Below are positions 15,356 through 38,289 of a stretch of 64,000 nt of DNA, piece by piece. Each line of letters begins with the position of its first letter. Within the stretch, counting starts at the first letter, position 1. The notes under the pieces are model-generated. The model saw nothing but the letters and a program-made list of their open reading frames with translations. It was not told the origin of the DNA and searched no databases. The position numbers were made by a program, and so were the translations under genes. The DNA is from an uncultured Gemmatimonadales bacterium (GTDB lineage: Bacteria; Gemmatimonadota; Gemmatimonadetes; Gemmatimonadales; GWC2-71-9): assembly GCA_963828735.1 (NCBI GenBank), contig CAWHFW010000005.1, positions 2,624,001 through 2,688,000 on the forward strand. The letters are read 5' to 3'.

Positions 15356-16939
15356 TCAGCGCTTCGAGTCGGGAAGGCGCGGCAGAACCTTTCCGTCGCC
15401 CAGATCCAGCGCGGCGACCTTTCCCTCCGCGTCGAGACGAAAGATCACCATCGAGGTGCCGAGCCACCGGTTCCGATAGCGTGCGCGAAAGCTGTCGTAA
15501 CTCCAGTGTTCGAGATCGGCCGTGAGAAAGGAGGTTTGGGCCAGCACGAGCCGGCCATTCTCCAGCCGAACTGCAGCCGACCCATACAGGCTGTCGGCGT
15601 AGGTCCCCGTATACTTGTCGAGCGCCAGCGAAGGCTTCGTTCCACCCACGCGCTTCCGCTCGATTTCCTTCTTCGCCACGTCGACCGAATCCTGCAGCCG
15701 CTGGTACAGCGCGTGCATGTCCGCATTCCAATCCCGCGCCGGCCCGCCGAGATACGCATCGAACGCGCGGTACATGAGCGCGTGGCGCAGCTCCGCGTGG
15801 TCCCGGTTGGCGAGCACCACGATGCCGAGCCGGCGCGCCGGGATGAGGCCCACGATGGCCACCAGCCCGTCGATGCTGCCGGTGTGGAAGGCCACCTTCT
15901 CGCCGCGGTAATCCTCCAGGAACCAGCCCAGACCGTATGCGGTGAAGTTCGGCTTCGTGAGGCGGACCGCCGGGTAGATCTCGTCGAGCTTGACCAGCAC
16001 CTGCGGCTTCATCAACTCCGCGAACGCCGTGTCGCTCACGAGCCGCTTTCCCGCGACCCGCCCGCTGTCGAGCAGGAAGCGCATCCACTTCGTCATGTCC
16101 AGCACGCTCGCGTACATCGAGCCGGCCGGCGCGATCGGGTCGGCGAGCTGCTGCGAGGAGGCGGGCAGCGCACGGAGGGTGTCGTCGATGCGGGCGTGCG
16201 GGCGCGTGACATTGGGCCGGGCGCGGAGCTCGGGCCCGTCCATCACGGTCTCCGTCATGCCGAGTGGCTTGAGGATCCGGGTGCGGACCAGGTCCTCCCA
16301 CGAGCTCCGGTTGGCCGTTCCCGCGGCGAGCCCCGCGACCGCATAGCCGATGTTGTTGTAGGCGAATCGAGACCGGAGACTGCTCTCGGGAGCAAGGAAG
16401 CGCAGCCGGTGGATCATCTCGGCGAGGGTCAGGTCGCTCCCGTACCACAGGTACTCCGGGTCGGCGAACCCGATCACATGGGTCAGCAGGTCGCGGAGCC
16501 GCACCTCGCGGGTAGCGTAGGGATCGTGGAGCACGAACCCCGCCAGCACGGTCGCGACCGGGTCGTCCCACCGGAGCTTGCCCGCGTCCACCATGAGCGC
16601 CACCGACAAGGCGGTGAATGCCTTGGTCGTGGAGCCAAGGGCGAACAGCGTATGCGCGTCCACCGAGTCGCGCGTGCCGGTGGTGCGCACGCCGTACCCG
16701 CGCGCGAACACCACCGAGTCGTCCTTCACGACGGCCACGGCCATGCCCGGGACGTCCCACTCGCTCAGGGCCCGGGAGGCGTAGCCGTCGAATCCCGCGA
16801 GCGGCGTCTTGATGTCTGGGGGCGTCTGCGCGCCGGCCGGACACAGCGCACCGGAGAATGCCAGAGCGGCGACGGTGCGGAGGCAGACCACCGCCGGGCG
16901 AAAAGCCCGCGCGGAGGCCCGCCGTTGGGGTGAGGTCAC
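15356..16939 (-). CDS. Secreted serine hydrolase, beta-lactamase/PBP fold, with DUF3471-like C-terminus
   Basis: SxxK (STTK), YxN (YNN), HTG; directly downstream of susD. GTG start inferred. Confidence 0.88.
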   Translation of the reverse strand: MTSPQRRASARAFRPAVVCLRTVAALAFSGALCPAGAQTPPDIKTPLAGFDGYASRALSEWDVPGMAVAVVKDDSVVFARGYGVRTTGTRDSVDAHTLFALGSTTKAFTALSVALMVDAGKLRWDDPVATVLAGFVLHDPYATREVRLRDLLTHVIGFADPEYLWYGSDLTLAEMIHRLRFLAPESSLRSRFAYNNIGYAVAGLAAGTANRSSWEDLVRTRILKPLGMTETVMDGPELRARPNVTRPHARIDDTLRALPASSQQLADPIAPAGSMYASVLDMTKWMRFLLDSGRVAGKRLVSDTAFAELMKPQVLVKLDEIYPAVRLTKPNFTAYGLGWFLEDYRGEKVAFHTGSIDGLVAIVGLIPARRLGIVVLANRDHAELRHALMYRAFDAYLGGPARDWNADMHALYQRLQDSVDVAKKEIERKRVGGTKPSLALDKYTGTYADSLYGSAAVRLENGRLVLAQTSFLTADLEHWSYDSFRARYRNRWLGTSMVIFRLDAEGKVAALDLGDGKVLPRLPDSKR

Positions 16940-16940
16940 T

Positions 16941-18248
16941 TCAATCCGGGATGTTCGGGTTGTTGCTCGACTCGACGGTGGGCAACGGGAAGCACACCTG
17001 CGCGCCGAACGTGCCCGAGACGGCATCGCCCGCCTGGAACGGCGTCCCCGTCGCGGGGAAGAGCGGCAGTCCGTAGTGGATGATGTCGCCCAGGCGCTGA
17101 CCCTCGAGGAAGAATTCGCGGCGCCGCTCCTCGATGATCTGGGCTTGCACTTCCTCGGGCGTCCCGCCGGCGAAGGCCGGAATGCCGGCGTTGGCGTGCA
17201 GGGTGTTGATGATCCCCACGGCCCCGCCCGCATCGCCGGCAGCCACGTCCGCCTCGGCCACGATGAGCTGCGCTTCCTCCCAGCGGCCCACCGGGATGGG
17301 GGACTCGAACGCCGGGTACTTGGCCGGCAGGAAAATCGGCGTGACGTTGTCGGCGCCTGGCGTGCCGGCGTCGACCACGCTGACTCGAGGGTCGGGTACG
17401 CCCTCGAAGGTGACGTCGCGGAACGGGACGTCGACCGTGGCCTCGAGGAGTTGGCTCAGGACGTTGTACACGACGTTCTGGCGGGTCGGCTTTGCGTTGG
17501 AGTACGTGGCGTCCACTCGGAAGCCCACGGGGACCTGGACCGCATCCGCGGCCGCGGCCGGCAGGTTGCCGAGGTCACGTCGATCCCGCGCGCGCCCGAG
17601 GAGGGCAAGACTCAGGGTCTCGTCGTCGCCGGCCGCCGTGGCGGCGTCGATCGCCCTGGTGAACCTGGCATCCGCCTCGGCCAGGATCTGGGCGGGCGTC
17701 AGCTCGGGACCCACGTCGAGCGCCGCGGAGCACATCCCTTCGCCGAGAAGCACGAGGCTGTACCCGGCGTAGGTGGCGGCTGTGGCGATCAGGCCGATGC
17801 GACCGGGGACCTGCTCGTCGGTCCAGCCGTCGAGCAGCCCGAGGGCGTGGTCCCCGTCGTAGCGGGCCACCGACAGGACGGTGTAGACCGTCGGATCGTC
17901 GCCGCAGATCTGCGTGGAGTAGACGCTGTTCGTCGGGAGAATCGTGCGCCGGTCGTAGTCCCACAGCCGGTTGATCAGGTTCGCGTTGGCCAGCTCGTCG
18001 CCGACCAGCCCGCCCGCCACCACGTAGTTGGCCAGCGCGCACTCGAAGTCGCCCACTCCGCTCCGGACCAGGAGGGCCGCGTTCTCCGGCTTCTCCAGGT
18101 CCTCGGCGCCGATCTGGCTCGGCGCGTCCTGGCTGAGCGAGGTGAGGTCGCTGCAGGCGGCGAGTGCCACCGCCAGCACGCCCACGAGGAGCGCGATCGC
18201 GGCGACGTGGACCCGGCGGCCGTTCCGGGGTGCAGATCTCTGCCTCAT
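16941..18248 (-). CDS. susD: RagB/SusD-family outer-membrane lipoprotein
   Basis: Lipobox LAAC; EAQLIVAEA, INTLH, IEERRREFFLEGQRLGD; follows susC. Confidence 0.88.
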   Translation of the reverse strand: MRQRSAPRNGRRVHVAAIALLVGVLAVALAACSDLTSLSQDAPSQIGAEDLEKPENAALLVRSGVGDFECALANYVVAGGLVGDELANANLINRLWDYDRRTILPTNSVYSTQICGDDPTVYTVLSVARYDGDHALGLLDGWTDEQVPGRIGLIATAATYAGYSLVLLGEGMCSAALDVGPELTPAQILAEADARFTRAIDAATAAGDDETLSLALLGRARDRRDLGNLPAAAADAVQVPVGFRVDATYSNAKPTRQNVVYNVLSQLLEATVDVPFRDVTFEGVPDPRVSVVDAGTPGADNVTPIFLPAKYPAFESPIPVGRWEEAQLIVAEADVAAGDAGGAVGIINTLHANAGIPAFAGGTPEEVQAQIIEERRREFFLEGQRLGDIIHYGLPLFPATGTPFQAGDAVSGTFGAQVCFPLPTVESSNNPNIPD

Positions 18249-18283
18249 GAGGTCATCCTCTCGTCGTGTCGGTCGCGGGTCGG

Positions 18284-21244
18284 TTAGAAGCCGAGGCTGA
18301 TGGTCGTCACGAACTGCGCCAGCGTGGGCGTGACCGCCTGGTCGAAGAAGTCCAGACGCGTCACGGTCGGGTTCGGCTGGGCGCTCTGGCTTTCGGGGTC
18401 GAGACCCGTGTACTTCGTCCAGGTGTGCAGGTTGCGCCCGCTCAGCGTGATGGTGGCGTGCCGCGCGCCGATCGCTCCCGCCCACTTGTCGGGGAGCGTG
18501 TAGCTCGCGGAGATCTCGCGCAGCTTGAAGAAGCTGGCGTCCTCGATGAACGTGTTGACCGTCTGCAGGTCGGCGCCGAAGGTGTAGTCGGCCAGCACCT
18601 TGGGATCCACGCCCTGGGGGCTCACGTTCTCCAGGCACTCGGCGAACACGGCGCACCGGATCCAGCTGTCCGTCTCGAACCGGTGGTGGCCCCGCTTGAA
18701 GTCCACCAGGCCGTACAGCCGCAGGTTCTTGAACAGGCGGAGCGTGGTGCTGAAGGCCCCCACGACCTTGGGGATGGGCGTGCCGGCGAACACCAGCGGC
18801 GCCGTGGCGCAGTCGACCGCGGCGTTGCCCGGCCCGCCGTCGCACAGGGCGCTGGTGACGGCGCCGCTCGGGTCCACCTCCGCGCTCACCACCCGCTTGA
18901 TGAAGTAGCCGGCGATCGGGTAGCCCTCGACGTTGCTCTGCAGCGGGAGCCCGAGCGGGATGCTCGAGATGCCACCCAGGTCCTTGATGTAGTTCGAGGC
19001 GGTGGCCACGCTCGCGCCGAGCTCCCAGCTCACGTCGCGGCCGGCGATCGCCAGGGCGTTCACCTGCAGCTCGATGCCCTTGTTGCTGACCTGGCCGATG
19101 TTGACGTACTGCTGGCCGGGGAAGCCGCCCGACGGCGGGGTGCTCCGGAGCAGGATGGCGTCCTTGGTCTGCTTGTTGTAGACGGTGAAGTCGATGCCGA
19201 CGCGGTTGAAGAGCCCCGCCTCGAAGCCCATCTCGAGCTCCTCGCCGCGCTCGGGCTTGAGGTCGGGATTGCCGACGGCCAGCGGCGTCACGGCCGGCTC
19301 GTCGTTCGGCCCTGTGCTCGGCCCGTAGGTCCTGAGGGCGGCGAACGCCTGGGGCTGGACGCCTGAGGCGCCATACGCCATCCGCAGTTTGAGCGCGTTG
19401 ACGAAGTCGAGCCCCCAGAACGACTCCTCGCTCACGACCCACGTGCCGCTCACCTTGGGGTAGCTGGCGAAGTCGAAGTTGTCGCCGAAGGCGCTGTTGT
19501 TGTCGACCCGGACCGCGCCGGTCAGGAAGAGGCGGTCCCTGTACCCGAACTGCTGCTGAGCATACAGGCCGATCGTCTTGTTGTTGATGAAGTCCTGGCT
19601 GCCGAAGGTGGTCGCGGTGGAGATGCCGGTCTGGACGCCGGGTGCGGGAAACTGCTGTCCCTGCACGCCGAGTGTGTCGATCCGCCGCTCGTAGTACTGG
19701 CCGCCGATGGAGGTGGCGGAGCTGAAGCTGGGAGACAGAGCGAAGCGCCCGGTGGCGCTATAGTCCGCTGTGTAGAGCGTTTGGTCGCGGCGGTTGAGCG
19801 TGAGGGCGCCGCGGGCGCTCACGGGGTCGAAGAATTGCGCGACGTCGGGCGGCATGAACTCGGTCAGCGCCTGGTTGTCCTCGCCGGTCTGATCGAGGCC
19901 GAGGATCAACCGGTGGCTGAACCACTGCCACGGGCGGTGATTCAGGGTGACGCTGCCGGTGAAGTGCGAGATGTCCTGGGTATTGTCGAACACGCCCGAG
20001 TAGTACGCTTCCGGCGGCGCCATGAGGAAGCCGCGGGTCGGGGTGCCCTGGAGCGCGGGCAAGCCGAACAGGGTGTTGAAGAAGACGCCGTCCGCGTAGT
20101 CGGCGCCGAGGTGGGTCTTCCCCTTCACATAGTTGAGGCTGGTGCTGACGTCGAGGCGTTCGTTGATCGGAAACACCAGGTTGGCGTGCCCGGCGAACCG
20201 CTTCAGGCCGTTGATGGGCTCGATCCCGTCCTCGTCGTCGTAGGTGCCCGAGAGGTAGTACTGAATGGCGCTGGCGCCGCCGCTGGCCGAGAAGTTGTAG
20301 CTCTGGTTGTGCCCGTTCTTCCAGATGGGCGTGCCGCGGTCGGTCTCCTGCTGCGCCAGGTTCTGGGACACGATCGCGCCCGTGGTGGCGTCCAGGCCGT
20401 AGTTGGTCGGAATCCGACCCTCGGGGTCCTGGAACCAGTTGGTGCCCTGCTTGACGCTGATGTTGATCTCGGGCTTGGCGCCGCGCTGACCTCGCTTGGT
20501 GATGACCTGGATGACGCCGTTCGAGGCCTCGGTGCCGTAGAGGGTCGCCGCCGCAGGGCCCTTGATGATCTCGATGCTCTGGATGTCCTCGGGGGCGATG
20601 TCGTTGAGCCGGGAGACTACCGACCCGCCCGCGGCGCCGGAGGGGCCGGTCAGGGCGTCGTTGTTGACCCGCACCCCGTCGATGTAGAGCAGCGGCTGGC
20701 TGTTGAGCGAGAGCGAGCTCAAGCCGCGCACCGTAATAGTTGGGCCGGCGCCCGGGCGGCCCGAGTTGGGCAGGACGGTCACGCCCGGCGCTCGGCCGTT
20801 GATGAGCTTGGTGACGTCGCCCGCGCCGGAGAGCTCGAGCGCGGCGGGTACGTCGATGGTGGCGATCGAGTTGCCGACAGCGCGTCGCTCGGTCCCCTCG
20901 GGCTGGCCGGTCACCACGATCTCGTCCAGCTGGACGGTGGTCTCGTGGAGGCCGACGCTGAGCTTGGTCGTCGGGCCGGCGACGGCGATGATCGCGGGCT
21001 GGTAGCCGATCCGGGCGACCCGAAGCGTCGCAGGGAAGACGGGTACGCCGGCGAACCGGAAGTGGCCGTACGCGTCGGTGGTCTGCACCAGCGGCGTGCC
21101 GTCGACGGTCACGCGCGCGCCCTCGAGGGCGTCCCCGGTGGTAGCTTGGACGACCGTCCCGGCGACGGTGGAGTCCTGGGCCTGGGCGACGCTCGTCGCG
21201 AGGGCGAGGGCGGCGAGCAGAAGGGCCAACCGAGCCTGGGTCAT
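18284..21244 (-). CDS. susC: SusC/RagA-family TonB-dependent transporter
   Basis: Signal peptide, LDEIVVTG, plug motif DIQSIEIIKGPAAATLYGTEASNGVIQVITK, GNPDLKPE, C-terminal Phe. Confidence 0.92.
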   Translation of the reverse strand: MTQARLALLLAALALATSVAQAQDSTVAGTVVQATTGDALEGARVTVDGTPLVQTTDAYGHFRFAGVPVFPATLRVARIGYQPAIIAVAGPTTKLSVGLHETTVQLDEIVVTGQPEGTERRAVGNSIATIDVPAALELSGAGDVTKLINGRAPGVTVLPNSGRPGAGPTITVRGLSSLSLNSQPLLYIDGVRVNNDALTGPSGAAGGSVVSRLNDIAPEDIQSIEIIKGPAAATLYGTEASNGVIQVITKRGQRGAKPEINISVKQGTNWFQDPEGRIPTNYGLDATTGAIVSQNLAQQETDRGTPIWKNGHNQSYNFSASGGASAIQYYLSGTYDDEDGIEPINGLKRFAGHANLVFPINERLDVSTSLNYVKGKTHLGADYADGVFFNTLFGLPALQGTPTRGFLMAPPEAYYSGVFDNTQDISHFTGSVTLNHRPWQWFSHRLILGLDQTGEDNQALTEFMPPDVAQFFDPVSARGALTLNRRDQTLYTADYSATGRFALSPSFSSATSIGGQYYERRIDTLGVQGQQFPAPGVQTGISTATTFGSQDFINNKTIGLYAQQQFGYRDRLFLTGAVRVDNNSAFGDNFDFASYPKVSGTWVVSEESFWGLDFVNALKLRMAYGASGVQPQAFAALRTYGPSTGPNDEPAVTPLAVGNPDLKPERGEELEMGFEAGLFNRVGIDFTVYNKQTKDAILLRSTPPSGGFPGQQYVNIGQVSNKGIELQVNALAIAGRDVSWELGASVATASNYIKDLGGISSIPLGLPLQSNVEGYPIAGYFIKRVVSAEVDPSGAVTSALCDGGPGNAAVDCATAPLVFAGTPIPKVVGAFSTTLRLFKNLRLYGLVDFKRGHHRFETDSWIRCAVFAECLENVSPQGVDPKVLADYTFGADLQTVNTFIEDASFFKLREISASYTLPDKWAGAIGARHATITLSGRNLHTWTKYTGLDPESQSAQPNPTVTRLDFFDQAVTPTLAQFVTTISLGF

Positions 21245-21320
21245 GCTCTGTCTCCGGAGGGGAGTGGGGTGCGGGGCTGCTTGCGCCGGGGAGGCCGGGA
21301 ACGCTATGTTCTCACGGCCA

Positions 21321-21342
21321 TTGTATACAGTTTCACATACAA
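21321..21342. promoter_or_regulatory. Putative GntR operator (tandem boxes) between susC and gntR
   Basis: TTGTATACAG (21321) plus TCACATACAA (21333) in an AT-rich divergent intergenic region. Confidence 0.65.
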
Positions 21343-21473
21343 CAATGAGCGGCGGGACGCAAATGCGCAAGACGGGCTCGCCTCGACAACCGCCTATCGC
21401 CGTCGCTATCGTTGGGCGGCCGGCCCCGAAACCTCGCTCATCCGCTCCAGTCCCTCTTGCTCGGGAGGCCCCG

Positions 21474-22214
21474 GTGAAGGCCCGCGCCGCCGCTCCCCGC
21501 TCTCCCGCTGCCCGCGCGCCGACCATCCTCCGCGGCGAGCGGCCGCTCGTGGTCTACGAGCAGCTCCGCGACCTCATCGTGCACGGTCATCTGGCGCCCG
21601 GGAGCCGCATCGTCGAGAGCGACGTCGCGACCCGGCTGGGCGTGAGCCGGACCCCCGTGCGCGGCGCGCTCCAGCGGCTGCAACAGGAGGGGTACATCGT
21701 GGACCCGTCGGGCGGGCGCCTGGCACGGCCGACGGTGGCACCGCTCACCAGCGAGGACGCGCGGGAGCTGTTCCACATCGTGGCCGAGATCGAGGGATTG
21801 GCCGGCCGCTGGTCCGCGGGGCTCGCAGTGGGCGCGCGGCGCGCGCTCGCCCGGTCGCTCCGCGCCATCAACGCCGATTTCCGCCGCGAAGCCGACGTTC
21901 GCCGGCCGGACTTCAACCGGCTGCACGACCTGGACAGCACCTTCCACCGCACCTATGTGGAGGCCGGCGCCGGCCGCCGGCTGCTGGCCCTGCATACCAC
22001 CATCAAGCCGCAGGCGGAGCGGTACGAGCGGATCTACCTCAGCCTGCTGGTGAGCGACCTCGACACCTCGGCCTCCGAGCACGAGGCGATCGCGGCGGCC
22101 ATCGAGCGGGGCAACGCCGATGCGGCCCAGCACTCCGTCCAGACCAACTGGCGCAACGCCGCCCAGCGCCTCGAGCGGGTGATCGATCGGGCCGGCGAGC
22201 GGGGGAGCTGGTAG
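21474..22214 (+). CDS. GntR-family transcriptional regulator (HTH plus FCD)
   Basis: VYEQLRDLIVHG..ESDVATRLGVSRTPVRGAL HTH; FH..EHEAI FCD. GTG start after GGGAGG; alternative ATGs at 21345 and 21363. Confidence 0.9.
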   Translation: MKARAAAPRSPAARAPTILRGERPLVVYEQLRDLIVHGHLAPGSRIVESDVATRLGVSRTPVRGALQRLQQEGYIVDPSGGRLARPTVAPLTSEDARELFHIVAEIEGLAGRWSAGLAVGARRALARSLRAINADFRREADVRRPDFNRLHDLDSTFHRTYVEAGAGRRLLALHTTIKPQAERYERIYLSLLVSDLDTSASEHEAIAAAIERGNADAAQHSVQTNWRNAAQRLERVIDRAGERGSW

Positions 22215-24363: not shown

Positions 24364-26065
24364 GTGTCATCTCGGCAGGGCGCCCGCGCCGCGGCGCTCT
24401 GGCTTCTGGCCGCGTGCGCGGCCCCTGCCTCCACGGCCGGCCCGTCCGGCTCGCCTGCGCCCGAGGGCGGGTACGATCTCGTCATTCGGCACGGGCGGGT
24501 GCTCGACGGCGCCGGCAATCCGTGGGTCGCCGCGGACGTGGCGGTCAGGGACGGACGGATCGCGAAGGTCGGAGTCGTCCCGGAGCGCGGGCGTCGGCGA
24601 GATCGACGCGCACCGGCCGCTACGTCTCTCCGGGCTGGTTCGACATGATGGACCAGTCGGGCTACGTGCTGCTCGAGAACGGCGCCGCGGAGAACAAGCT
24701 GCGAATGGGCGTCACGCACCCTGATCGCGGGCGAGGGCGGGACGCCGGCGTGCCGGCGGACAATCGCGGACTACTTCGCGCGGCTCGAGCGCCAGGGGAT
24801 CGCGCGTCAACTTCGGCACCTACTACAGCGCCGCCCAGGCGCGGGTCGACGCGATGGGCGATGGCGCCGGGTCGCCCACGCCGGCGCAGATGGCGAAGAT
24901 GAAGGCCGATGTTCGGCTCGCCATGGATGCCGGCGCGTTCGGCATCTCGAGCGCGCTCATCTACCCGCCCGGACAGCTTCCAGACCACGCGAGGACCTGA
25001 TCGAGCTCGCCCGGGTCGCGTCGGCAGTGCGACGGCTTCTATGCCACTCACATGCGCGACGAGAGCGAGGACCTGGTCGCGCGCGATCGGCGAGGCGGTC
25101 GAGATCGGCGAACAGGGCGGCGTGAAGGTCGAGATCTTCCACCTCAAGGCGGCCTACGCACCCAGGCTGGGGCCAGCTGATGCCCCAGGCGCTCGCCGAG
25201 ATCGATAGCGCGCGCGCGCGCGGCGTCGACGTCGGCGGCGGACATGTATCCGTATCCGGCCGGCGGCACCGGCCTCAGCATCACGGTGCCCAACTGGGTG
25301 TTCGAGGAGGGAGAGGACTCGGGCGTGGGCGCGCCTCCGGGAGCCGGCGGTCCGCGAGCGGCTCAAGCGCGAGGTCGCGGCCGGCTCGAGCCCGGGTGGT
25401 CCAACCTCGTCCAGGCCTCGGGCGGCTGGGACCACGTGGTGCTGGCCAATCCGTTCAACCCGAAGTACGACCCTACCGGATGAAGAGCCTGGCCGAGATC
25501 GGCGCCGCGCTCGGCCGCGACCCGGCGGACGTCGCCTGGGACATCGTGCTCGAAGCCCTGCCGGAGCGCGCGATGGCGCTGTTCTTCATGATGGACGAGC
25601 GCGACATCGAGACGTGCGCTGCGCCAGCCCTGGACCAGCATCGGCAGCGACGCCGCGGCGGCGGCCAAGTTCGGCGAGGTCGACGCGCTCGGACTCCCGC
25701 ACCCGCGCGCCTATGGCACGTTCACGCGGGTCATCGCCGAGTACGTGCGCAAGCGCCACGTGCTGACGCTGGAGCAGGCGGTCCGCAAGATGACGTCGTG
25801 GCCCGCTACGCGGATGGGCCTCTTCGACCGCGGGATGATCCGCGACGGCATGCGGGCGGACCTCACGGTATTCGACTACGAGCGGCTCCAGGACAACGCG
25901 ACCTGGCAACAGCCCACGGCCGCCGCCAGTGGGATCGACTACGTGGTCGTGAACGGGCAGGTGACGGTCGACGCGGGCCGCTATACGGGCGCCAAAGCGG
26001 GGCGCGTGCTGCGGGGCGGATGCGCGCGCGACCCGGGGACGCGACCCGACTCGGAGACGAAATGA
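24364..26065 (+). CDS. N-acyl-D-amino-acid deacylase (D-aminoacylase)-family lipoprotein, many indels in this sequence
   Basis: Lipobox LLAAC; reconstructed YDLVIRHGRVLDGAG, PGWFDMMDQ, THMRDE, IFHLKA, DMYPY, PHPRAYGTF, AVRKMTS. More than ten indels between 24598 and 25620. Confidence 0.8.
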
Positions 26066-29474: not shown

Positions 29475-31940
29475 CTATTGTCCCTGCGCCGCCGAGGAAA
29501 GCTGCTCGAAGGTGAGGTTCTGAATCCGGTAGCGGCGCCAGTCCTGATAATCGAAATGCCACCACTCGGCCTCATAGACGGTGAAGCCCTGGGCCTCCAT
29601 CGCGTGGCGCAGCAGGTCGCGCAGCCACCGCTGCCGCGACGTACCGCCCGGATAAAGCGGGTAGGAGCGGTCGCTCATCTCGTCGTAGCCGCCCGTCATG
29701 CCGACGGGCCGTCCGCTCTTCAAGTCGTAGAGCGTGATGTCGACGGCGCAGCCGCGGTTGTGTCGTGATCCCTGCGACGGATCGGCGACGAACAGATGCT
29801 GCTCCGTGGGCGTGGCGTCCCAGAACACCTTGGTCACGTACCACGGCCGGTAAGAGTCGTGCACCAGCAGGCCGTAGCCGAGCCGCTTGAGGGCGCGAGA
29901 AGCGCGGGCGACCGCCTCTGCCGCGGGGCGCTGCATGAAGGCGTGCGCGGAGCTGTAGAGCGGCGTGCTCAAGAAGTTGTTCGACGTCGCGTAGCGAATA
30001 TCATAGCGGATGCTCGGGTCCAGGGTCCGTAGCTCGACCAGGTCCGACGGCAGGAAGTCACCCGTCTCCTCCGGTGGCTGAGCGGACAGCGCAGTGGCGC
30101 GGAGCGTCGGGATCGGCGCCACCGGCGTGATGTGGAAGCTCGTCCGTTGGTCATCCGTGGGGAGCGGCCGGCGCTTGAAGGGGACGGTCGCTACCACCGC
30201 ATCGGTAGCCCGCCCGTCTGGGCCGCGCCGGAAGACGATCTCCTGGCCGTCGTACAATCCCCTGCGCGGGAACCGATAGACGTCGCGGGAGGCGCGCTCG
30301 AGCGGGTATTCGAAAAACCACTCGATCAGTGCGTTCAGCTTCCCGTCCTTCTCGCGAATGTACAGGACATCGTGGTCCCAGCCGTACTCGCCGATGAGGC
30401 CGGCGAATGCGTCCGCCGCCGCTGCCGGCTTCGGCCCCGCCATCGGCACGGCCTCCGACCCCGGAGTCGGAAGCCGGACCAGCGTATCGGTGCCGAGGAC
30501 GATCCGTCCGTGGCCCAGCGCCTGAACCCGGGTGCCTTCGCCGGGCTGATCATCTCCGACCAGCTCGGTCGGCGCTCGGCCGCTGTCGGCATTCGCGGGT
30601 CCGGCCACGCGCAACTCTGCCCGGGTACCTCCTCCGATCGGCGTCAGGTAGAGCTTGCCTTCGTACTCCTCCAGATCCACCCCGTTCTGGCCCCTCGCGT
30701 ACCGGCCCATGAGGCCGAGTGCCTGCGCTCTGGTCAGGGGGCTGGTGGTCGGCTGCGACGGGAGCGGTTCGCCGGCGCGGGCCGCCAACAGCATCCGCAG
30801 GGCCGCCGAGGCGATGTCGTCGGTCACGGCGTTCATCACGTCGAGGGAGGCGACCACGACCACGCCGAGCGAGTCGTCCGGGAGCGCGAGAAGCGTGGTG
30901 GCGAAGCCGTAGATCGCGCCATCGTGTCCGACGGCGCGGTGGCCATTCAATCGACCGACCCAGAAGCCGATCCCGATACCGCTGGTGTCGCCCGGGGACG
31001 CGTATTGCGGTGTCCACATCGAGTCGAGCGTGGCCTTCGCCAGCACCCGGTGGCCATCGGGGGTGGCGCCACCGGCGAAGAGAACGGAAAGGAAGCGGCC
31101 GAGGTCGAGGACGCTGGTGTAGAGGCTGCCGGCGGGCCCCTCGCCGAGCTGGAACGTGGGCGCGGCGAAGCGCCGGCCATGAAGCGTCCACATCTGTCCC
31201 GACGCCAGATGTGGCTCGAGCCGGGGAAGCGGCTCGAATGCGCTCTGACTCATGCCCATCGGCTCGAGCACGGTATGCTGGAGATAGTCGCCGAAGGGCT
31301 CGCCCCGTGTCCGCTCGAGCACGTATCCAAGCACGGCCACGCCGGCGTTGGAGTACTTGGTATGTGCGGCCGGAGGATACACCAGCTTGGTGCCATTGAG
31401 ACTCGCGACCGTGGCCGCCAGCGTCGGCTGGGTATCGTCGAAATAGTGGCCGACCGGGGGTTCTCGGGTGAGGCCTGAGCGGTGCGAGGTGAGCTCGCGG
31501 AGGGTGATGTCGCCGCCGAAGGGGTTCGTCGGCTGGAAGTCGGCAAGGTATCGGCGGACCGGCGCGTCCAGCGCCAACTCTTTGCGTTCGACGAGCTGCA
31601 TGACGGCCATGTCGGTAAACAGCTTCGAGACCGAGCCGACGCGGTAGACGGTCGCTGCGTCCGCTGCCACCCCGGCGGCAGAGTCCGCCCAGCCGAACCC
31701 GCGGGCCCAAACGATGCGGCTTCCATCCACCAGGGCCAGCGAGATCGCCGGGATGCCGTGTTGCGCCCGCAGTCGCTCGATCGTCGGAGTCAGCGCGCCG
31801 GCGACCTCCGCGTAGCGCGCCTGCGGATCGACCGCGGTTTGCGATGCGGCGGCACGCGGCAGCAGGGCAAGGCCGATGAGTCCGAGTGTCAGCCGGGCAC
31901 GATGACGTGACAGCGGTTCGGGCGCTGCAGGACCTGCCAC
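29475..31940 (-). CDS. Fusion of a serine hydrolase (beta-lactamase fold) and a VanX/DdpX-type D-Ala-D-Ala dipeptidase (M15D)
   Basis: N-terminal SVSK, YSN, HDG; C-terminal DIRYATSNNF, DSYRPW, SRHNRGCAVD, EWWHF; GTG start after GGAGG. Confidence 0.88.
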   Translation of the reverse strand: MAGPAAPEPLSRHRARLTLGLIGLALLPRAAASQTAVDPQARYAEVAGALTPTIERLRAQHGIPAISLALVDGSRIVWARGFGWADSAAGVAADAATVYRVGSVSKLFTDMAVMQLVERKELALDAPVRRYLADFQPTNPFGGDITLRELTSHRSGLTREPPVGHYFDDTQPTLAATVASLNGTKLVYPPAAHTKYSNAGVAVLGYVLERTRGEPFGDYLQHTVLEPMGMSQSAFEPLPRLEPHLASGQMWTLHGRRFAAPTFQLGEGPAGSLYTSVLDLGRFLSVLFAGGATPDGHRVLAKATLDSMWTPQYASPGDTSGIGIGFWVGRLNGHRAVGHDGAIYGFATTLLALPDDSLGVVVVASLDVMNAVTDDIASAALRMLLAARAGEPLPSQPTTSPLTRAQALGLMGRYARGQNGVDLEEYEGKLYLTPIGGGTRAELRVAGPANADSGRAPTELVGDDQPGEGTRVQALGHGRIVLGTDTLVRLPTPGSEAVPMAGPKPAAAADAFAGLIGEYGWDHDVLYIREKDGKLNALIEWFFEYPLERASRDVYRFPRRGLYDGQEIVFRRGPDGRATDAVVATVPFKRRPLPTDDQRTSFHITPVAPIPTLRATALSAQPPEETGDFLPSDLVELRTLDPSIRYDIRYATSNNFLSTPLYSSAHAFMQRPAAEAVARASRALKRLGYGLLVHDSYRPWYVTKVFWDATPTEQHLFVADPSQGSRHNRGCAVDITLYDLKSGRPVGMTGGYDEMSDRSYPLYPGGTSRQRWLRDLLRHAMEAQGFTVYEAEWWHFDYQDWRRYRIQNLTFEQLSSAAQGQ

Positions 31941-31960: not shown

Positions 31961-33142
31961 TTATGCCGAGCGCGTCGCCTGCCGGGCCGTCTCGGCGAGC
32001 ACCGCGGCGCCGACGAATACGCTCTCGTCGGCCGCATAGAAGCGCGGCGAATGAGCGGGGAGCCACGGACCGCCAGGCTCGCGCGCGCCGACCCTGAGAA
32101 AGCACCCAGGCAGACGCTCAAGGTAGAACGCGAAGTCTTCCCCGCCCATGTTGGCCCCGGCGAGCGGCACCAGCGCGTCGGGGCCGAGCACGGTGCGCAC
32201 CGCCTCGCGGGCCCAGCCGGTCGGCCCTGGCTGGTTCGTCAGCGGCGGCGTGCCGGCGCCGAACGACACCTTCGCCTCCAGCCGGTGCGCCGCCGCGACG
32301 TGCACGCTGATTGTCTGGAGCCCGGCGAGCAGCAGATCGCGCGAGGCGCTGTCCACCGCGCGGACGGTTCCAGTCACCTCGGCAGTTCCCGGAATGACGT
32401 TGTCCGCCGTGCCCGCGTGCACCGATGCGACCGTCACGACGCCTGGCAGTGCCGGATCCAGTCTCCGGGAGACCAGCGTCTGGAGCGCCGTGATCAACGC
32501 CGCCGCTCCAACCACCGGATCGGCGGACTCGTGCGGGCGGGCCGCATGCGCGCCTGAGCCGACCAGCTCGATCCGGAAGAAGTCCGCCGACGCCGCCAGC
32601 GCCCCGGGTTGCGCCACCACCTGTCCTACCGGGTACCGCCGATCCACGTGCGCCCCGATGATGGCCGATGCCCCGTTCAGCGCGCCGGTCGCGAGCACCG
32701 CCGCCGCACCCTCGGCCGCTTCCTCCGCCGGCTGCAGCAGCACCAGCACGTCGCCGTCGGCCGGCGACTTCCGCAGGAGCATCGCGGCGCCCACCGTCCA
32801 GCTCGCGTGCACATCGTGCCCGCATGCGTGCATGACCCCCGGCGTCTCCGATGCATACGCGAGGCCTGTGGCCTCCTGGATCGGGAGCGCGTCGATGTCG
32901 CCGCGGATCACCACCGGGGGGCCGCCCGAGGTCCGTCCCGGGATGCGGCCGAGCAGGCCCGTACCGGCCACTCGCCGGATGTCCGCGACACCAAGCGCCG
33001 CCAGCGCCGCCTCCAGGCGGGCCGCGGTCGCCTCCTCCTGCCAGGAGAGCTCCGGCCGGCGATGCAGCTCGTGTCTCAAGGCGATGAGCCGCGCCGCGTC
33101 TTCCTCCCCGAAGCCCAGCGTGGCCGGCAGCGCGGACCTCAA
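31961..33142 (-). CDS. M20-family amidohydrolase (candidate N-succinyl/acyl-L-amino-acid deacylase)
   Basis: HRRPELSWQE, RGDIDALP, MHACGHD, QPAEE, GAHAARPH, GEDF; TTG start overlaps the GNAT stop (TTGA). Confidence 0.88.
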   Translation of the reverse strand: MRSALPATLGFGEEDAARLIALRHELHRRPELSWQEEATAARLEAALAALGVADIRRVAGTGLLGRIPGRTSGGPPVVIRGDIDALPIQEATGLAYASETPGVMHACGHDVHASWTVGAAMLLRKSPADGDVLVLLQPAEEAAEGAAAVLATGALNGASAIIGAHVDRRYPVGQVVAQPGALAASADFFRIELVGSGAHAARPHESADPVVGAAALITALQTLVSRRLDPALPGVVTVASVHAGTADNVIPGTAEVTGTVRAVDSASRDLLLAGLQTISVHVAAAHRLEAKVSFGAGTPPLTNQPGPTGWAREAVRTVLGPDALVPLAGANMGGEDFAFYLERLPGCFLRVGAREPGGPWLPAHSPRFYAADESVFVGAAVLAETARQATRSA

Positions 33143-33942
33143 CGCTCCGCCTTCGAGAGCCGGTAGAAGCCGCCCGAGTTGGCCCGCTGGAAGCCCGAGA
33201 CGCGGTAGCCGTTGCCGAGACAGTGGAGAAACGCCGAGCGCGTGGACTCGCGCCACGCGCGGGCCGTGGCGGGCGCGGTGGCGATCAGATCCTGGATGTC
33301 GCCGGGAATCGCGATGAAGAGCTCGGGCGCGCCTTCGGTCGCGCATGGCATCGCGAGGTTCACCACGAGGGCCGCCGGGGGCTCCGCCGCCGGGGCGTGA
33401 GGTGAGGTTCGTGCCAGCGTACCGGCGCCCGAAGTGAGCTCCCAGGCGACGACCAGTCGATCGGTGCCGATCGCGTCGTGCAGCGCGCTCCCCGTGTCCG
33501 AGCCGTACATCTCCGGTACGTACTCGGCCACCTCCGCGCCAAGGGCATTGAGGTTGAGGTGCGCGTTCCGGGCCACGAGCGGATCGTAAGTCCAGAACAT
33601 GCGCGTCACGCCGAGCTCCGCGACCAGGGAGCGTTGGTACAGCTTGAGGCGTCGGCCAAGACCGCGGTCCCGGGCCTCCGGGCGGACGGCAAGGAGGTCG
33701 GACCAGTGCACCAGCCGCCCGTCCTGCACGCCCGTCATTCCGAACACGAAGCCGAGCATCGCCCCGCCGTGCCCGTCGAACGCAGCGGCTGTCACGCCGC
33801 CGAGATACTGCGCTACCCTGAGGATCGTGGCCGGCACGCGCTCGTTGAAGCCCGCGCCCCACGTCAGATCTTCGATGCGGACGCACTCGTCGTACTCGGC
33901 TTGTGTCTCCACCCGACGGATGACGATGCCGTCTTCGCTCAT
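33139..33942 (-). CDS. GNAT-family acyltransferase (candidate D-amino-acid N-succinyltransferase)
   Basis: HWSDLLAVRPEARDRGLGRRLKLYQR, WTYDPLVARNAHLNL, TDRLVVAW, typical of GNATs adjacent to NSAR/OSBS genes. Confidence 0.82.
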   Translation of the reverse strand: MSEDGIVIRRVETQAEYDECVRIEDLTWGAGFNERVPATILRVAQYLGGVTAAAFDGHGGAMLGFVFGMTGVQDGRLVHWSDLLAVRPEARDRGLGRRLKLYQRSLVAELGVTRMFWTYDPLVARNAHLNLNALGAEVAEYVPEMYGSDTGSALHDAIGTDRLVVAWELTSGAGTLARTSPHAPAAEPPAALVVNLAMPCATEGAPELFIAIPGDIQDLIATAPATARAWRESTRSAFLHCLGNGYRVSGFQRANSGGFYRLSKAER

Positions 33943-35294
33943 GATGGCGGGGCTCCGGCAGGACCGGGCGCAGGTTCGGCACCCGCCGGAGCGCCGCGGC
34001 GGCGCCAGACCAGATAGACCGGCGACCCGAGGAGGACGACACCGAGGCCGATCGCCGCCCGGCCCGGCTGGGCGACGATCGTGTTGAGCACGATCGCGGC
34101 GGCGGACGCGACGAACAGGAGCGGCGTGATCGGATAGCCGGGTACCCGGAACGGACGGGGCGCGTCGGGCGCGCGCCGGCGATAGCGGAACAGGCTGAGC
34201 GCGCCCAGCGCGTAGAAGATCCAGCCGACGAACACGACGTAGGTGAGGAGCTGCTCGAAGGTGCCGGTGACGGCGAGCAGCATTGCCCAGGCGGAAGACG
34301 CCACGATGGCCACGGCCGGAGTGCCGAAGCGCGGATGTACCTGGGCGAGCTGACGGAAGAAGACCCCGTCCCGGGCCATCGCGAAGAAGGCGCGCGGGAG
34401 CGTGAGCACGGTTCCGTTCGTGGCGCTGAAGATGGAGACCAGGATCACGAGGGCCACCACCGTGCCGGCGGCGTGTCCGAAGAGCGCGGTCGCGGCCTCG
34501 GCCGCCACCCGGTTCGATCCCGCGACGCCGGCCGGACCGAGCGCCGCGATATAGCCGAGGCAGGCGAGCAGGTAGATGCCGACCAGCGCGGCGGTGCCCA
34601 GCACGATCGCGCGCGGGAAGGTGCGCTGGGGATCCCGCGCTTCGCCGGCGGAGTAGGTGACGAACTGCCAGCCCTCGTAGGCCCACAACGTCCCGATCAT
34701 CGCCAGGCCGAAGCCGGTGACCAGCGAGCCGCCGGCGACCGGCGTCACGGGGGCGACTTGGCTGAAGCCGTGGCCCTTCAACAGGAACAGGACGCTCATC
34801 AGCAGGATACCGGCCACCTTGATCAGCGTGGTCCAGCCCTGCAGTCGCGCGCTGCCGCGAGTCCCCCGGACGTTGATCACCGCAATCGTCGCGATCAATG
34901 CCACCGCGGTGAGCCGGCCGGTCACGGGCCCCAACGGCACGATCTGGCCGAGGTACGTGGTGGACGCCACCGCGAGCGTGGCAATGGTACCGCTGCCGGT
35001 GACGAAGAAGAGCGTCCAGCCGAACAAGAAGGCCGGGAAGGGACCGAACGCGTCGCGGATGTACACGTACAGGCCGCCGGCCTCGGGCCGCATCGCGCCG
35101 AGCTCGGCGTAGGTGAGGGCGCCAAGCAGCGAGAGCGCCCCGCCCACGATCCAGACCAGGAGTGATATCCCGACCGAGCCGCCCGTCTGACGCATGACGG
35201 CGCCGGGGACGATGAAAATGCCTGAGCCGATGACCGTGCCGATCACGATCGCCACCAGCTGGCGCAGGCTGAGGAGGCGGGGCAGCTCGCTCAT
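33939..35294 (-). CDS. APC-family amino acid permease
   Basis: GTVIGSGIF, ALTYAELG, WAYEGW, about 12 TM segments; ATGA overlaps on both sides. Confidence 0.9.
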   Translation of the reverse strand: MSELPRLLSLRQLVAIVIGTVIGSGIFIVPGAVMRQTGGSVGISLLVWIVGGALSLLGALTYAELGAMRPEAGGLYVYIRDAFGPFPAFLFGWTLFFVTGSGTIATLAVASTTYLGQIVPLGPVTGRLTAVALIATIAVINVRGTRGSARLQGWTTLIKVAGILLMSVLFLLKGHGFSQVAPVTPVAGGSLVTGFGLAMIGTLWAYEGWQFVTYSAGEARDPQRTFPRAIVLGTAALVGIYLLACLGYIAALGPAGVAGSNRVAAEAATALFGHAAGTVVALVILVSIFSATNGTVLTLPRAFFAMARDGVFFRQLAQVHPRFGTPAVAIVASSAWAMLLAVTGTFEQLLTYVVFVGWIFYALGALSLFRYRRRAPDAPRPFRVPGYPITPLLFVASAAAIVLNTIVAQPGRAAIGLGVVLLGSPVYLVWRRRGAPAGAEPAPGPAGAPPS

Positions 35295-36418
35295 GCGCCG
35301 CGTCCCAACCGCTCTTCGCGTACCGTCAGCCGTCCGATCATCTCGCGGTCCGGCGTGACACCGATGCCTGGATCCGTCGGGACGCTGACCAGGCCGTCCT
35401 GCATCGTCCACTCGGGCGAGACCACGTCCCGCTCCCAGTACCGCGCGCTCGGAGAGACGTCACCCGGCTTGAGGAAGTTGGGCAGCGCGGCGAGCGCCAC
35501 GTTGTACCCCCGGCCCACGCCGCTCTCGAGCATGCCGCCGCACCAGACGGGAATGTCGTGGGCCGCGCAGAAGTCGTGGATCGCGATGGACGGCCCGAAC
35601 CCGCCGACCCGGCCCGGCTTGATGTTGACGATGCGCCCGCTCCCGAGGGCGACCATCTCCTGGGCCCGCTCGAGCGAGGTGATCGACTCGTCGAGGCACA
35701 GCGGTGTCCGGAGGCGAGGCTGGAGCTCCGCGTGCTGGCGGAGGTCGTCCCAGGCGAGCGGCTGTTCGATCATCATGAGACCGAGCTCGTCCAGTTCGAG
35801 GAGGCGGTCGGTGTCAGCGAGGGTATAGGCGTTGTTGGCGTCGGCCATGAGCGGCGCGTCGGGCCCGAGGGCGGCGCGAACGGCGCGGACGAACTCCACA
35901 TCCGAGCCCGGCTCGATCTTGAGCTTCACCTTGCGGTAGCCGTCCTGCACCGCGCGCGCGGCGCGCTCGACTAGCGCCGCGGGCGAGGTCTGGATGCCGA
36001 GCGAGATGCCGACCTCGATACCGGCTCGCGTCCCGCCGAGGCGGGCGGCCAGCGAGAGACCCTGTCGCTCGGCGTCGAGCGCCCACATTCCCATCTCGAG
36101 CGCGGCCTTGGCCATGAGGTGCCCGCGGAAGTTGTGCTGCAGGGCGGGGAATACCTCTTCGGGGCCGGCGAACGTCCGGCCGAGGACCCGGGGGGCGACC
36201 CAGTGCTTGAGAGCGAGCCAGGCGGTGTCGATGGTCTCGCCGGTGTAGTTGGGCTCCTCGGGCGCGACGCACTCGCTCCACACGGTCACGCCGTCGGCGT
36301 CCTCCAGCTCGAGGAGGAAAATGCGGCGCGCCCGCTGCGTCCCCGAGGAGATCCGGAATGGCTCGCGCAGCGGGAGCTGGATCTCCCGGAGGACGAGGCA
36401 CGCGAGGGCCAGGCTCAC
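35291..36418 (-). CDS. menC: N-succinyl/N-acylamino acid racemase / o-succinylbenzoate synthase (enolase superfamily)
   Basis: KLK, DAN, EQP, DES, NIKPGRVGG, WCGGMLESG, PGDVS. GTG start inferred. Confidence 0.88.
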   Translation of the reverse strand: MSLALACLVLREIQLPLREPFRISSGTQRARRIFLLELEDADGVTVWSECVAPEEPNYTGETIDTAWLALKHWVAPRVLGRTFAGPEEVFPALQHNFRGHLMAKAALEMGMWALDAERQGLSLAARLGGTRAGIEVGISLGIQTSPAALVERAARAVQDGYRKVKLKIEPGSDVEFVRAVRAALGPDAPLMADANNAYTLADTDRLLELDELGLMMIEQPLAWDDLRQHAELQPRLRTPLCLDESITSLERAQEMVALGSGRIVNIKPGRVGGFGPSIAIHDFCAAHDIPVWCGGMLESGVGRGYNVALAALPNFLKPGDVSPSARYWERDVVSPEWTMQDGLVSVPTDPGIGVTPDREMIGRLTVREERLGRGA

Positions 36419-36446: not shown

Positions 36447-36468
36447 CTGGATTCAGTATTGTATACAT
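36447..36468. promoter_or_regulatory. Putative GntR operator (tandem boxes) between the NSAR operon and the D-aminoacylase
   Basis: CTGGATTCAG (36447) and TTGTATACAT (36459), 12-bp spacing, in an AT-rich divergent intergenic region. Confidence 0.65.
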
Positions 36469-36541
36469 TAGTAGAAACAATGGACGGTCGGCGCGTACCG
36501 CGCAAGAGGGTCCGTTACTCACCAGCCCATCTTCCTGCCAA

Positions 36542-38289
36542 ATGCCTGCTGCCGCTACCCGCTTGGTTCCCTGGCTCCCGTTCCTCGGCCTGCTCGCCTG
36601 CCACGCCGGACCCGCCGCTACATCGCCCGGGCCCATCCCGGAGGTACGGTATGACGTGATCCTGGCGGACGGAAAGGTGATGGACGGTACCGGCAACGCC
36701 TGGTTCCAGGGGGACGTGGGCGTCACGGGGGACCGGATCACCTGGGTGGGGCCGGCCGGCTCCCTGAGCGGGGCGACAGCAGCGCGGCGGGTCGACGCCC
36801 GCGGGATGGTCGTGGCGCCGGGCTTCATCGATATCCAGAGCGGCTCCTACGACAACCTCCTCGTGGGCGACGGCCGCTCGCTCAGCAAGGTGACACAGGG
36901 CATCACGACCGAGATCATGGGCGAGGCGTACACCCCGGCGCCCTGGAACGACGCCGTGGCCGCATTCAGCGACTTCCTCTTCGCCTACGCCGACAGCGCC
37001 ACGGTCAAGCGCACCGTGGCGGAGCTCGGCGGCCCGCACGGGTTCGGGAACTGGCTGGACGCGATGCAGCGGCACGGCATGTCGGTCAACGCGGGCTCGT
37101 TTCTCGGCGCCACCACGCTGCGCACCTACGTCATGGGGCAGTCGCCCGGGGCGCCGAGCGCGGAACAGCTGGACTCGATGCGGGCGCTCATGCGGGGCGC
37201 GATGGAGGACGGCGCCTTCGGGCTCGGGACGGCGCTGATCTACCCCCCGGCAACTACGCCTCCACGTCGGAGCTGACCGAGATCGCGAAGGCGATGGCGC
37301 CCTATCATGGCGTCTACATCACCCACATGCGGTCGGAGGCCGACCGGTTTCTCGAGGGGATGGACGAGGCGCTGGCGATCGGCCGCAACGGCGGGGTGCC
37401 GGTCGAGATCTACCATCTGAAGGCGGCGGGAAAGCGCAACTGGGATAAGGCGGCGCAGGCGATCGCCAAGATCGACTCGGCCCGCGCCGCGGGACAGGAC
37501 GTCTCCGCCGACATGTATCCCTACATCGCCGGCGGCACCGAGCTCGCCGCCTGCCTGCCGCCCTGGGCCTCGGCCGACGGGCGACTGATGGAGAACCTGA
37601 AGGACTCGGCCACGCGCGCGCGCATCCGCACCGAGGTCTCGGCCGAGCGCTCGGCGGAGTGGGAGAATCTCTGCCAGCTCGCGACGCCGGAGGGAGTTCG
37701 GGTCGGCGACTTCCAGCGCCCGGAGAACAAGCGCTTCGAGAACCAATCCCTGGAGCAGATCGCGGCCACCCGGGGGCAGCCCTGGGTCGACGCGCTGATG
37801 GACTTGACGGTGGAGGAGAACGGCCGGCTCGGCGCGATGTTCTTTCTCATGAGCGAGGAGAACGTCGAGCTGCAGCTCCGGCAGCCGTGGATCAAGTTCG
37901 GCACCGACGCCGGCGCGAGCGATCCTGCCGACACGCACGGCAGCGAGACGCACCCGCGGGCCTACGGCACCTTCCCGAGGATTTTAGGGCACTACGTGCG
38001 GGAGCGCCGGGTGCTGCCGCTCGAGGACGCGGTCCGGAAGATGACGTCCGCGGTCGCGGAGCGGCTTTCGATTCGCGATCGCGGGCTCGTGCGTGAGGGC
38101 ATGTTCGCCGACCTCGTGGTGTTCGATCCCGCTACCGTGATCGACAACGCTACCTACGAGCACTCGCACCAGATCTCCAGCGGCATCCTGGACGTCTTCG
38201 TCAATGGCGTCCCGGTCGTGCTGGATGGCAAGCACACCGGCGCTAAACCCGGGAAGGCCGTGCGGGGGCCGGGCTGGCGCCACAACTAG
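36542..38289 (+). CDS. N-acyl-D-amino-acid deacylase (D-aminoacylase)-family lipoprotein, one frameshift near 37250
   Basis: Lipobox LLAC; PGFIDIQ, THMRSE, IYHLKA, DMYPY, GTDAG, HPRAYGTF. One G missing after the C-run in TACCCCCCGGCAAC. Confidence 0.85.

Follow-up and report, generated by a model that had tools for sequence, protein, structure and literature searches.

Gene content and organisation of the locus

We analysed a 64,000-nucleotide stretch of DNA (henceforth the window, whose positions are used throughout; it spans 2624001-2688000 of contig C5 of assembly G000) from an uncultured Gemmatimonadales bacterium, the assembly of which comprises 4.78 Mb in 7 contigs at 69% guanine plus cytosine (GC) content and 97.5% completeness. 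Our subject is a block at 15356-38289 in which a first-pass annotation had listed 14 genes, all of which were recovered here among the open reading frames (ORFs) (Table 1). They comprise a susC-susD pair, a gntR regulator, five serine hydrolases of family S12 (SH1 to SH5), two D-aminoacylase-family genes (DAA1 and DAA2), an APC permease and three genes (GNAT, NSAR and M20) with predicted roles in converting D- into L-amino acids. The block is a conserved gene cluster and probably serves as a single GntR-controlled feeding system for D-amino-acid peptides.

The block has the same GC content as the remainder of the window. It is not one operon: four strand-alternating units are arranged around two divergent promoter regions, such that susC-susD-SH1 (minus strand) diverges from gntR-SH2-DAA1-SH3-SH4 (plus strand), and NSAR-APC-GNAT-M20-SH5/VanX (minus strand) diverges from DAA2 (plus strand). 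These gene families are clustered more than expected by chance: the 23-kb block holds 5 of the genome's 14 PF00144 (S12) genes, 2 of its 3 D-aminoacylase-like genes, 1 of its 3 full-length susC genes and the sole member of the GNAT gene's family in 4.78 Mb. Inspection by eye pointed to signal peptides in the seven hydrolases and lipoboxes in susD, DAA1 and DAA2, and to neither in GNAT, NSAR and M20. No family of carbohydrate-active enzymes (CAZymes) was found among the Pfam matches of the 13 genes scanned or of an intact DAA1 orthologue, in keeping with the earlier statement that the locus has no glycoside hydrolase.

Table 1 Features of the locus, with positions in the window
Feature	Position	Strand	Basis
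SH1: S12 serine hydrolase + DUF3471, predicted signal peptide	15356..16888 (start approximate)	-	Pfam; STTK, YNN, HTG
susD, predicted lipoprotein	16941..18248	-	PF07980; SusD fold, best Z 33.1; lipobox Cys conserved
susC TonB-dependent transporter	18284..21244	-	TIGR04056 above cut-off; 53-member clade
Predicted GntR operator TGTATACA, between susC and gntR	21322..21329	.	motif scan and comparison
gntR, FadR subfamily (helix-turn-helix + FCD)	21363..22214 (start 21363 or 21474)	+	Pfam
SH2: S12, predicted signal peptide, C-terminal membrane helices	22370..24355	+	SVSK, YSN, HGG; hydrophobic C-terminal segments
DAA1: D-aminoacylase-family predicted lipoprotein, 14-16 indels	24364..26065	+	assigned via intact orthologue
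SH3: S12 + DUF3471 + second beta-rich domain	26062..27867	+	Pfam, alignment, structure model
SH4: S12 + DUF3471	27864..29462	+	SNTK, YDN, HTG
SH5: S12 fused to M15 (VanX-type) D-Ala-D-Ala dipeptidase domain	29475..31913 (start approximate)	-	SxHxxGxAxD, ExxH kept
M20D amidohydrolase, predicted N-succinyl-L-amino acid desuccinylase	31961..33142 (start approximate)	-	TIGR01891 and context
GNAT-like, predicted D-amino acid N-succinyltransferase	33139..33942	-	homologue names; NSAR proximity
APC-family amino acid permease	33939..35294	-	Pfam/NCBIfam
N-succinylamino acid racemase (NSAR/OSBS subfamily)	35291..36418	-	best PDB matches, motifs
Second predicted GntR operator TGTATACA, between NSAR and DAA2	36460..36467	.	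motif scan
DAA2: D-aminoacylase-family predicted lipoprotein, one frameshift near 37243-37254	36542..38289	+	orthologue comparison

Conservation of the cluster in related genomes

We compared the locus with 79 other genomes of the genus, each at least 80% complete. SusC was found at 72% identity or more in 12 of them, and GNAT in 11 of those 12 and in none of the other 67 (in genome G488, SusC was 49% identical and GNAT was missing). Genome G026 carries the complete set on one contig in another order; there, an S9 peptidase gene follows susD, and two S12 genes are additional. In G066-G069, susC lies 10-15 kb from an NSAR gene. The flanks of the locus vary between genomes of the genus and gene order is heavily shuffled.

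A wider scan with NSAR covered the best 80 of 412 loci, which we split by title into 52 of Gemmatimonadota type (about 10 of them members of the genus, and two with odd titles) and 28 that were chiefly from Acidobacteriota. GNAT lay within 10 kb of NSAR in 76 of the 80. Within that distance, the Gemmatimonadota-type loci had GNAT in 50 cases, M20 in 43, S12 or DAA in 36 and gntR in 21. In the other 28, GNAT was present in 26 cases and M20, S12, DAA or gntR in none. On these counts, the extended cluster characterises Gemmatimonadota, and the D-to-L core is more widespread.

We then took the SusC of locus L088 as a query against 201 Gemmatimonadaceae genomes, obtaining 46 matches in 45 genomes. 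GNAT was present in 44 of the 45 genomes with this SusC type vs. 142 of 201 overall (counted by hand; the unpublished genome G076 enters tallies only, including these). Neighbourhoods of up to 20 kb could be compared around 40 of the 46 matches: S12 genes were found in 32, DAA in 14 (either in 33), gntR in 26, GNAT or NSAR in 24, APC in 14, M20 in 6 and VanX in 1. Other peptidases recurred as well, namely tricorn S41 (17 loci), M23 (14; HxxxD and HxH motifs intact in both of two checked), S15 (13), S9 (12) and M19 (4). For the remaining six matches, coordinates place GNAT within 0.3 kb in four (G225, G166, G247 and G126), and two (G220 and G241) lie outside this count. Among 20 control SusC loci from five NSAR-bearing genomes, by comparison, 4 had S12 or DAA, 1 had APC, 5 had S9 and none had gntR, GNAT or NSAR, the genes downstream being mostly unrelated. 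The linkage that the first-pass annotation had proposed to look for by synteny is thus preserved in two families, reshuffled though the genes are, and control SusC loci lack it.

SusC trees (built with quick and FastTree methods) agree with this picture. Specifically, in a FastTree phylogeny of 110 rows the window SusC falls in a 53-row clade with support 100, in which it is joined by 8 sequences from the genus and 44 from Gemmatimonadaceae. Loci without any cluster gene numbered 0 of 53 inside the clade vs. 25 of 57 outside it. SusC matches in other orders fell outside the clade, with D-to-L genes nearby in 0 of 8 loci. Homologues of 39-45% identity in G047, G049, G053, G057 and G059 likewise lay outside it, in unrelated contexts, and were set aside. 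The susC matches in L078 and L108 were dropped as they consisted of carboxypeptidase-regulatory domains only, as was L084, presumed to be the same.

Outside the clade, D-to-L genes were found near another SusC in L043, L082, L131, L243 and L244. One of these, in genome G059 (L043:7581-19900, with L044), combines a SusC of another clade (32%), an IclR regulator, a D-aminoacylase-family gene, a penicillin-amidase-family acylase, GNAT-NSAR-M20 and a second GNAT, and is possibly an independent version for acylated peptides. L046 (G057) holds M20, DAA, an M19 dipeptidase, SH1, gntR, S15, GNAT, NSAR, APC and two TGTATACA sites, with no susCD nearby. Genome G069, listed with 7% contamination, carries the cluster twice, on separate contigs (L143 and L058), one copy being heavily frameshifted. 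Finally, the susCD pair of L204:3933-6957 (G063) precedes dltD and a gene for an AMP-binding enzyme, all on one strand, in an arrangement reminiscent of a D-alanylation operon.

A predicted operator shared by the importer and the D-to-L genes

Two copies of the palindrome TGTATACA are present in the genome, at window positions 21322 and 36460, one in each divergent promoter region. It matches the consensus NyGTNxACNy, with a 2-nt spacer; this consensus is the one reported for GntR regulators, and some FadR groups use that spacer (PMC4494728). The palindrome was present in 30 of the 52 Gemmatimonadota-type NSAR loci vs. none of the other 28, and it preceded susC in each of nine genomes of the genus that were inspected for it. 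Across the 40 Gemmatimonadaceae loci, it lay within 400 bp upstream of 9 of 38 susC genes vs. 1 of 125 other ORFs.

A scan of 15200-35000 for sigma-70 promoters and terminators returned matches at chance level. An alternative reading of TGTATACA is a two-way -10 promoter element. In a set of 60 distinct GntR rows, a 22-row clade carries an arginine directly after the conserved glutamate of the helix-turn-helix, and at the loci of this Arg-type clade the palindrome becomes GGTATACC (20 of 22, vs. 1 of 22 with TGTATACA). The other 38 loci had TGTATACA in 31 cases and GGTATACC in 1 (controls, 1 of 20). At Arg-type loci, GGTATACC lies upstream of susC in eight cases and otherwise upstream of GNAT, NSAR, SH2, S15 or tricorn genes. 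The joint change of the site and the GntR arginine speaks for an operator rather than a promoter element, and we therefore disfavour the latter. Together with the positions of the site, this change points to the importer and D-to-L genes being under one predicted GntR regulon. We also considered a regulon acting in trans on other SusCD pairs, as the site lies upstream of susC in L152, L199 and L210; we do not claim it, given that five genomes hold 3-17 copies of the site vs. 0-9 of the control pattern.

These comparisons bear on a rival explanation, namely that the block is a general RagAB-type oligopeptide locus whose D-handling genes are accessories for the odd D-residue. RagAB is itself a peptide-importing SusCD pair (PDB titles), tricorn S41, S9 and S15 peptidases are frequent neighbours of this SusC, and five loci of the clade (L178, L179, L188, L189 and L191) have gntR, most of them with tricorn, and no S12, DAA, GNAT or NSAR. 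Yet the hydrolases of the window block are solely of the S12, DAA and VanX types, the predicted operator precedes both susC and the D-to-L genes, and SusC and the D-to-L genes have been gained or lost jointly in the genus. We thus regard a general peptide locus as unlikely.

Predicted functions of the importer and enzymes

SusC and SusD form a tandem pair well supported by profiles (TIGR04056 score 454.8, cut-off 368.25; PF07980 score 38.1, cut-off 23.1), and RagA is the second-best solved sequence match of SusC.

The best solved relatives of NSAR are N-acylamino acid racemases (E 1e-99), and its nearest relatives in the NSAR scan carry Gemmatimonadales titles. It keeps the KxK, DAN, EQP, DES and KPGR motifs and the equivalent of second-shell residue R266, the role of which in NSAR/OSBS enzymes, together with the GNAT-NSAR-M20 pathway, has been described (bioRxiv 2022.03.03.481873). 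The genome (97.5% complete) has two futalosine-pathway genes for menaquinone (PF02621) and no MenD (TIGR00173) above the cut-off, so that the enolase is not needed as an OSBS. M20D scored 308.7 against TIGR01891 (cut-off 153.75). GNAT had no match in Pfam, NCBIfam or PDB, and its close homologues are named as predicted GNATs. We predict from sequence and context that GNAT succinylates D-amino acids specifically and that M20 desuccinylates L-forms specifically. Two GNAT paralogues of the same family occur per cluster in L070, L082 and L157, and their amino acid ranges may differ. A second NSAR-like gene (39.5%) lies amid genes of sugar-acid type, as judged by eye, at G000:C5:438944-449998.

All five S12 hydrolases have intact SxxK and YxN motifs, as noted earlier, as well as HxG, and the motifs SxxK, YxN and (H/K)xG are invariant in a 19-sequence alignment. 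Their accessory regions differ: DUF3471 is found in three of the five, C-terminal membrane helices in one and an M15/VanX fusion in one. A structure model of SH3 (mean predicted local distance difference test, pLDDT, 88.8) matched, in order, IS11, Pab87, Lip3, the Ochrobactrum D-aminopeptidase, SurE and ClbP; by this model, the nearest characterised S12 folds appear to be mostly D-stereospecific peptidases, the top one being an esterase. Pab87 is D-stereospecific and trims muropeptides (PMC2651629), and Lip3 cleaves D-L bonds in lipopeptides (PMC12903863). We infer a D-preference for the S12 hydrolases of the locus.

The VanX fusion in SH5, also reported earlier, was borne out, as S12 is joined to an M15 domain (PF01427, score 115.6) retaining SxHxxGxAxD and ExxH, the zinc motifs of VanX/DdpX. 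The domain scored below the NCBIfam equivalog cut-offs (PRK10178, 136.9 vs. 176; NF033115, 91 vs. 320). A VanX-type domain could indicate that the locus recycles the peptidoglycan stem peptides of the cell's own wall, and the M23 peptidases in 14 of 40 related loci and the trimming of muropeptides by Pab87 (PMC2651629) would fit this. Against it, anmK, murQ-like and nagZ-like genes and a probable dipeptide epimerase lie on contig C2 (neighbours assigned by eye), 67 of the 79 genus relatives do not have the locus, and fragments of a cell's own wall are released in the periplasm, with no need for import across the outer membrane; peptides from foreign walls, by contrast, belong to the D-peptide feeding system that we favour. 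Recycling of the own wall is, in our estimate, the least probable of the explanations weighed here.

The claim of two D-aminoacylase-family lipoproteins stands insofar as both genes are present, but both are frameshifted in the assembly. DAA1 has 14-16 frame-breaking indels, nearly all of a single base, relative to three intact orthologues (79% nucleotide identity). In DAA2 there is a single one, at or close to a C run. The frameshifts are probably assembly errors. Eight soil metatranscriptome runs contained 5-9% of the words, and the four that were assembled gave only short, shallow contigs that may represent DNA or relatives, making them uninformative on expression, habitat and the DAA1 indels.

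Taken together, the hydrolases could instead act on small amides, esters or N-acylated sugar acids, with the S12 proteins as esterases and the DAAs resembling OngB, a D-aminoacylase relative which deacetylates an oxidised chitin sugar and adjoins TonB receptors (PMC9537276). The esterase IS11 is the top S12 match, OngB is among the DAA matches and the metal sites of the DAAs are non-canonical. However, the block has no glycosidase, sugar kinase or deaminase, the genes recurring with this SusC are peptidases, and the DAA2 orthologue of G026 is closer to a true D-aminoacylase, that of Alcaligenes (E 1e-79), than to OngB (E 1e-55). We consider such small substrates very improbable indeed.

A further possibility is defence, i.e., that non-ribosomal peptide antibiotics or lipopeptides are imported and destroyed, with salvage as a by-product. 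The membrane anchor of SH2 is reminiscent of ClbP, and the separate susCD locus of G059 pairs D-to-L genes with a penicillin-amidase-family acylase. The S12 DL-peptidases Lip3 and Lip7 cleave lipopeptides and are induced by them (PMC12903863). Nevertheless, an outer-membrane importer, a permease and a three-step inversion serve uptake and use rather than exclusion, and no efflux gene recurred in three or more of the 40 loci, which makes a defensive role very unlikely.

Proposed function of the locus

We consider it reasonably probable that the locus mediates the GntR-controlled import of peptides with D-residues, their periplasmic cutting, uptake through the APC permease and D-to-L inversion. 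In this scheme, SusC/SusD would carry oligopeptides across the outer membrane, whereupon the five S12 hydrolases, the VanX domain and the two D-aminoacylase-family lipoproteins may cut beside D-residues in the periplasm. The APC permease would then import free amino acids, and in the cytoplasm GNAT would succinylate D-amino acids, NSAR racemise the products and M20 free the L-forms. As the D-aminoacylases are predicted to be exported, they would be kept away from the N-succinyl-D-intermediates in the cytoplasm, so that a futile cycle could be avoided. The first-pass annotation had already proposed import, periplasmic trimming and inversion; that outline is supported by the linkage, the shared predicted operator and the S12 folds, with a D-specificity that we infer.

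Mixed D/L peptides that derive from other organisms, of cell-wall or non-ribosomal origin, are the substrates we consider likeliest. Since tricorn, S9 and S15 peptidases of L-type are common in related clusters, mixed D/L peptides fit better than all-D peptides. Wall peptides are suggested by VanX here and M23 in relatives, and non-ribosomal peptides by the many S12 paralogues, the mixture of D- and L-type peptidases, the acylase of L043 and the parallel with the mlr cluster of sphingomonads (PMC10467064, PMC6563193).

Several observations weigh against this function. With respect to the enzymes, the functional assignment of GNAT rests on context and homologue names; SH3 has its best match, by sequence and by fold, in the esterase IS11, whose motif III is likewise HGG, and the identity of all characterised relatives in the fold search was only 16-25%. 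Neither DAA has the HxH alpha-site of classical (subtype V) D-aminoacylases, and in place of their bridging Cys there is Glu. Both traits are common to nearly all related DAAs, and the beta-site histidines and catalytic aspartate are kept, in that THMR, YHLK and GTDA align with the Alcaligenes enzyme. Active Cys-less D-acylases exist, possibly with other substrates (PMC12149444). The SusD model (pLDDT 86.7) is about equally close to glycan binders (Z 24-29) and to RagB/BT2263 (RagB, Z 26-27); this generic SusD fold gives no substrate hint and makes no peptide/glycan distinction.

With respect to linkage and regulation, genome G383 has SusC and no GNAT match, 16 of the 40 SusC-clade loci have no GNAT or NSAR in the stretch compared (some being short contigs), and the D-to-L genes often stand alone, with S12, DAA, M20 or SusC in none of the 28 Acidobacteriota-type loci. 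When the two genes downstream of susD were considered across the 40 loci, L160 had one glycoside hydrolase, on the opposite strand. The genomes are kin rather than independent, so the linkage counts are descriptive. TGTATACA is not rarer than under an order-4 Markov model (about 3 expected, 2 seen), meaning that its weight lies on placement, and the switch from TGTATACA to GGTATACC is a single evolutionary event on the tree.

More tentatively, and with somewhat greater doubt than belief, one may see here a dedicated D-peptide utilisation locus found across Gemmatimonadales, a counterpart of polysaccharide utilisation loci (PULs) in which SusCD selects D-residue peptides and one regulon turns them into L-amino acids. 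If true, Gemmatimonadales would be specialist consumers of cell-wall debris and peptide antibiotics from other microbes.

Comparison with known systems

Like the PULs of Bacteroidota, the locus has a tandem susC-susD, adjacent hydrolases, an inner-membrane transporter and a regulator; unlike them, it has no carbohydrate-active enzymes, its hydrolases belong to peptidase families, its host is a member of Gemmatimonadota and its regulator is a GntR. The locus would work in the manner of a PUL, but as no CAZymes were found we do not class it as one. With the GNAT-NSAR-M20 D-to-L pathway it shares the three gene types in one unit, an NSAR with its motifs and R266 kept, and menaquinone synthesis apparently by the futalosine route. 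It differs from that pathway in the addition of SusCD, exported hydrolases, a permease and a GntR with a shared predicted operator. RagAB, the peptide importer of Porphyromonas gingivalis (PDB 6SLI/6SLN), is likewise a SusCD pair for peptides; the SusD fold here is, however, no nearer to RagB than to glycan binders, and to our knowledge RagAB has no tie to D-specific enzymes or D-to-L conversion.

Three other systems resemble parts of the locus. One is the sphingomonad mlr cluster, in which MlrB is an S12 enzyme. No MlrA- or MlrC-type family was among the Pfam matches of the locus genes. The mlr cluster degrades microcystin, a non-ribosomal peptide with D-residues, and has the dipeptidase MlrE and the D-aminoacylase MlrF nearby (PMC10467064); SusCD, several S12 paralogues and the D-to-L route set the present locus apart. 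In Pyrococcus abyssi, the D-stereospecific S12 peptidase Pab87 (CubicO) is encoded beside a D-aminoacylase and a peptide transporter (for dipeptides), a locus for which use of environmental D-peptides was proposed (PMC2651629). It differs in being archaeal, with an ABC transporter and no outer-membrane importer, and the accessible text describes no NSAR route or regulon. In the gammaproteobacterium NOR5-3, a TonB receptor adjoins a D-aminoacylase and N-acyl-D-amino acid derivatives were proposed, from context, as the substrate transported (PMC3400609); this is a two-gene observation, with no SusD, peptidases, inversion pathway or regulator in the accessible account.

Each module therefore has a precedent, the shared predicted operator being an addition of this analysis to the first-pass annotation. 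The first-pass annotation knew of no description of the combination as one system; our literature search, with most subscription journals outside its scope, likewise found none, nor any of a combined co-regulated system. Gemmatimonadota are common in soils and poorly understood, and the searchable literature assigned no substrates to their many SusCD pairs. Our reading would give one SusC clade a testable role and the D-to-L pathway a natural feed, and names a route for the turnover of protease-resistant D-peptides. With its predicted operator in two variants, the regulon lends itself to direct testing, and candidates for stereoselective enzymes are offered by the S12 and Cys-less D-aminoacylase subfamilies.

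Other features of the window

Directly to the right of the locus (38373-42865) lies a succinate dehydrogenase-like operon, which includes a gene for a 170-amino-acid protein with no Pfam match. Succinate is the predicted by-product of M20, yet the succinate dehydrogenase neighbour does not recur in related loci. A further APC permease (53886-55265), 34.5% identical to that of the locus, is found 16 kb rightward. The window also encodes four Ser/Thr kinases that end in TPR or TolB-like regions (6753-8989, 12652-15342, 44114-46378 and 58125-60356); the first of these genes is split into two ORFs.

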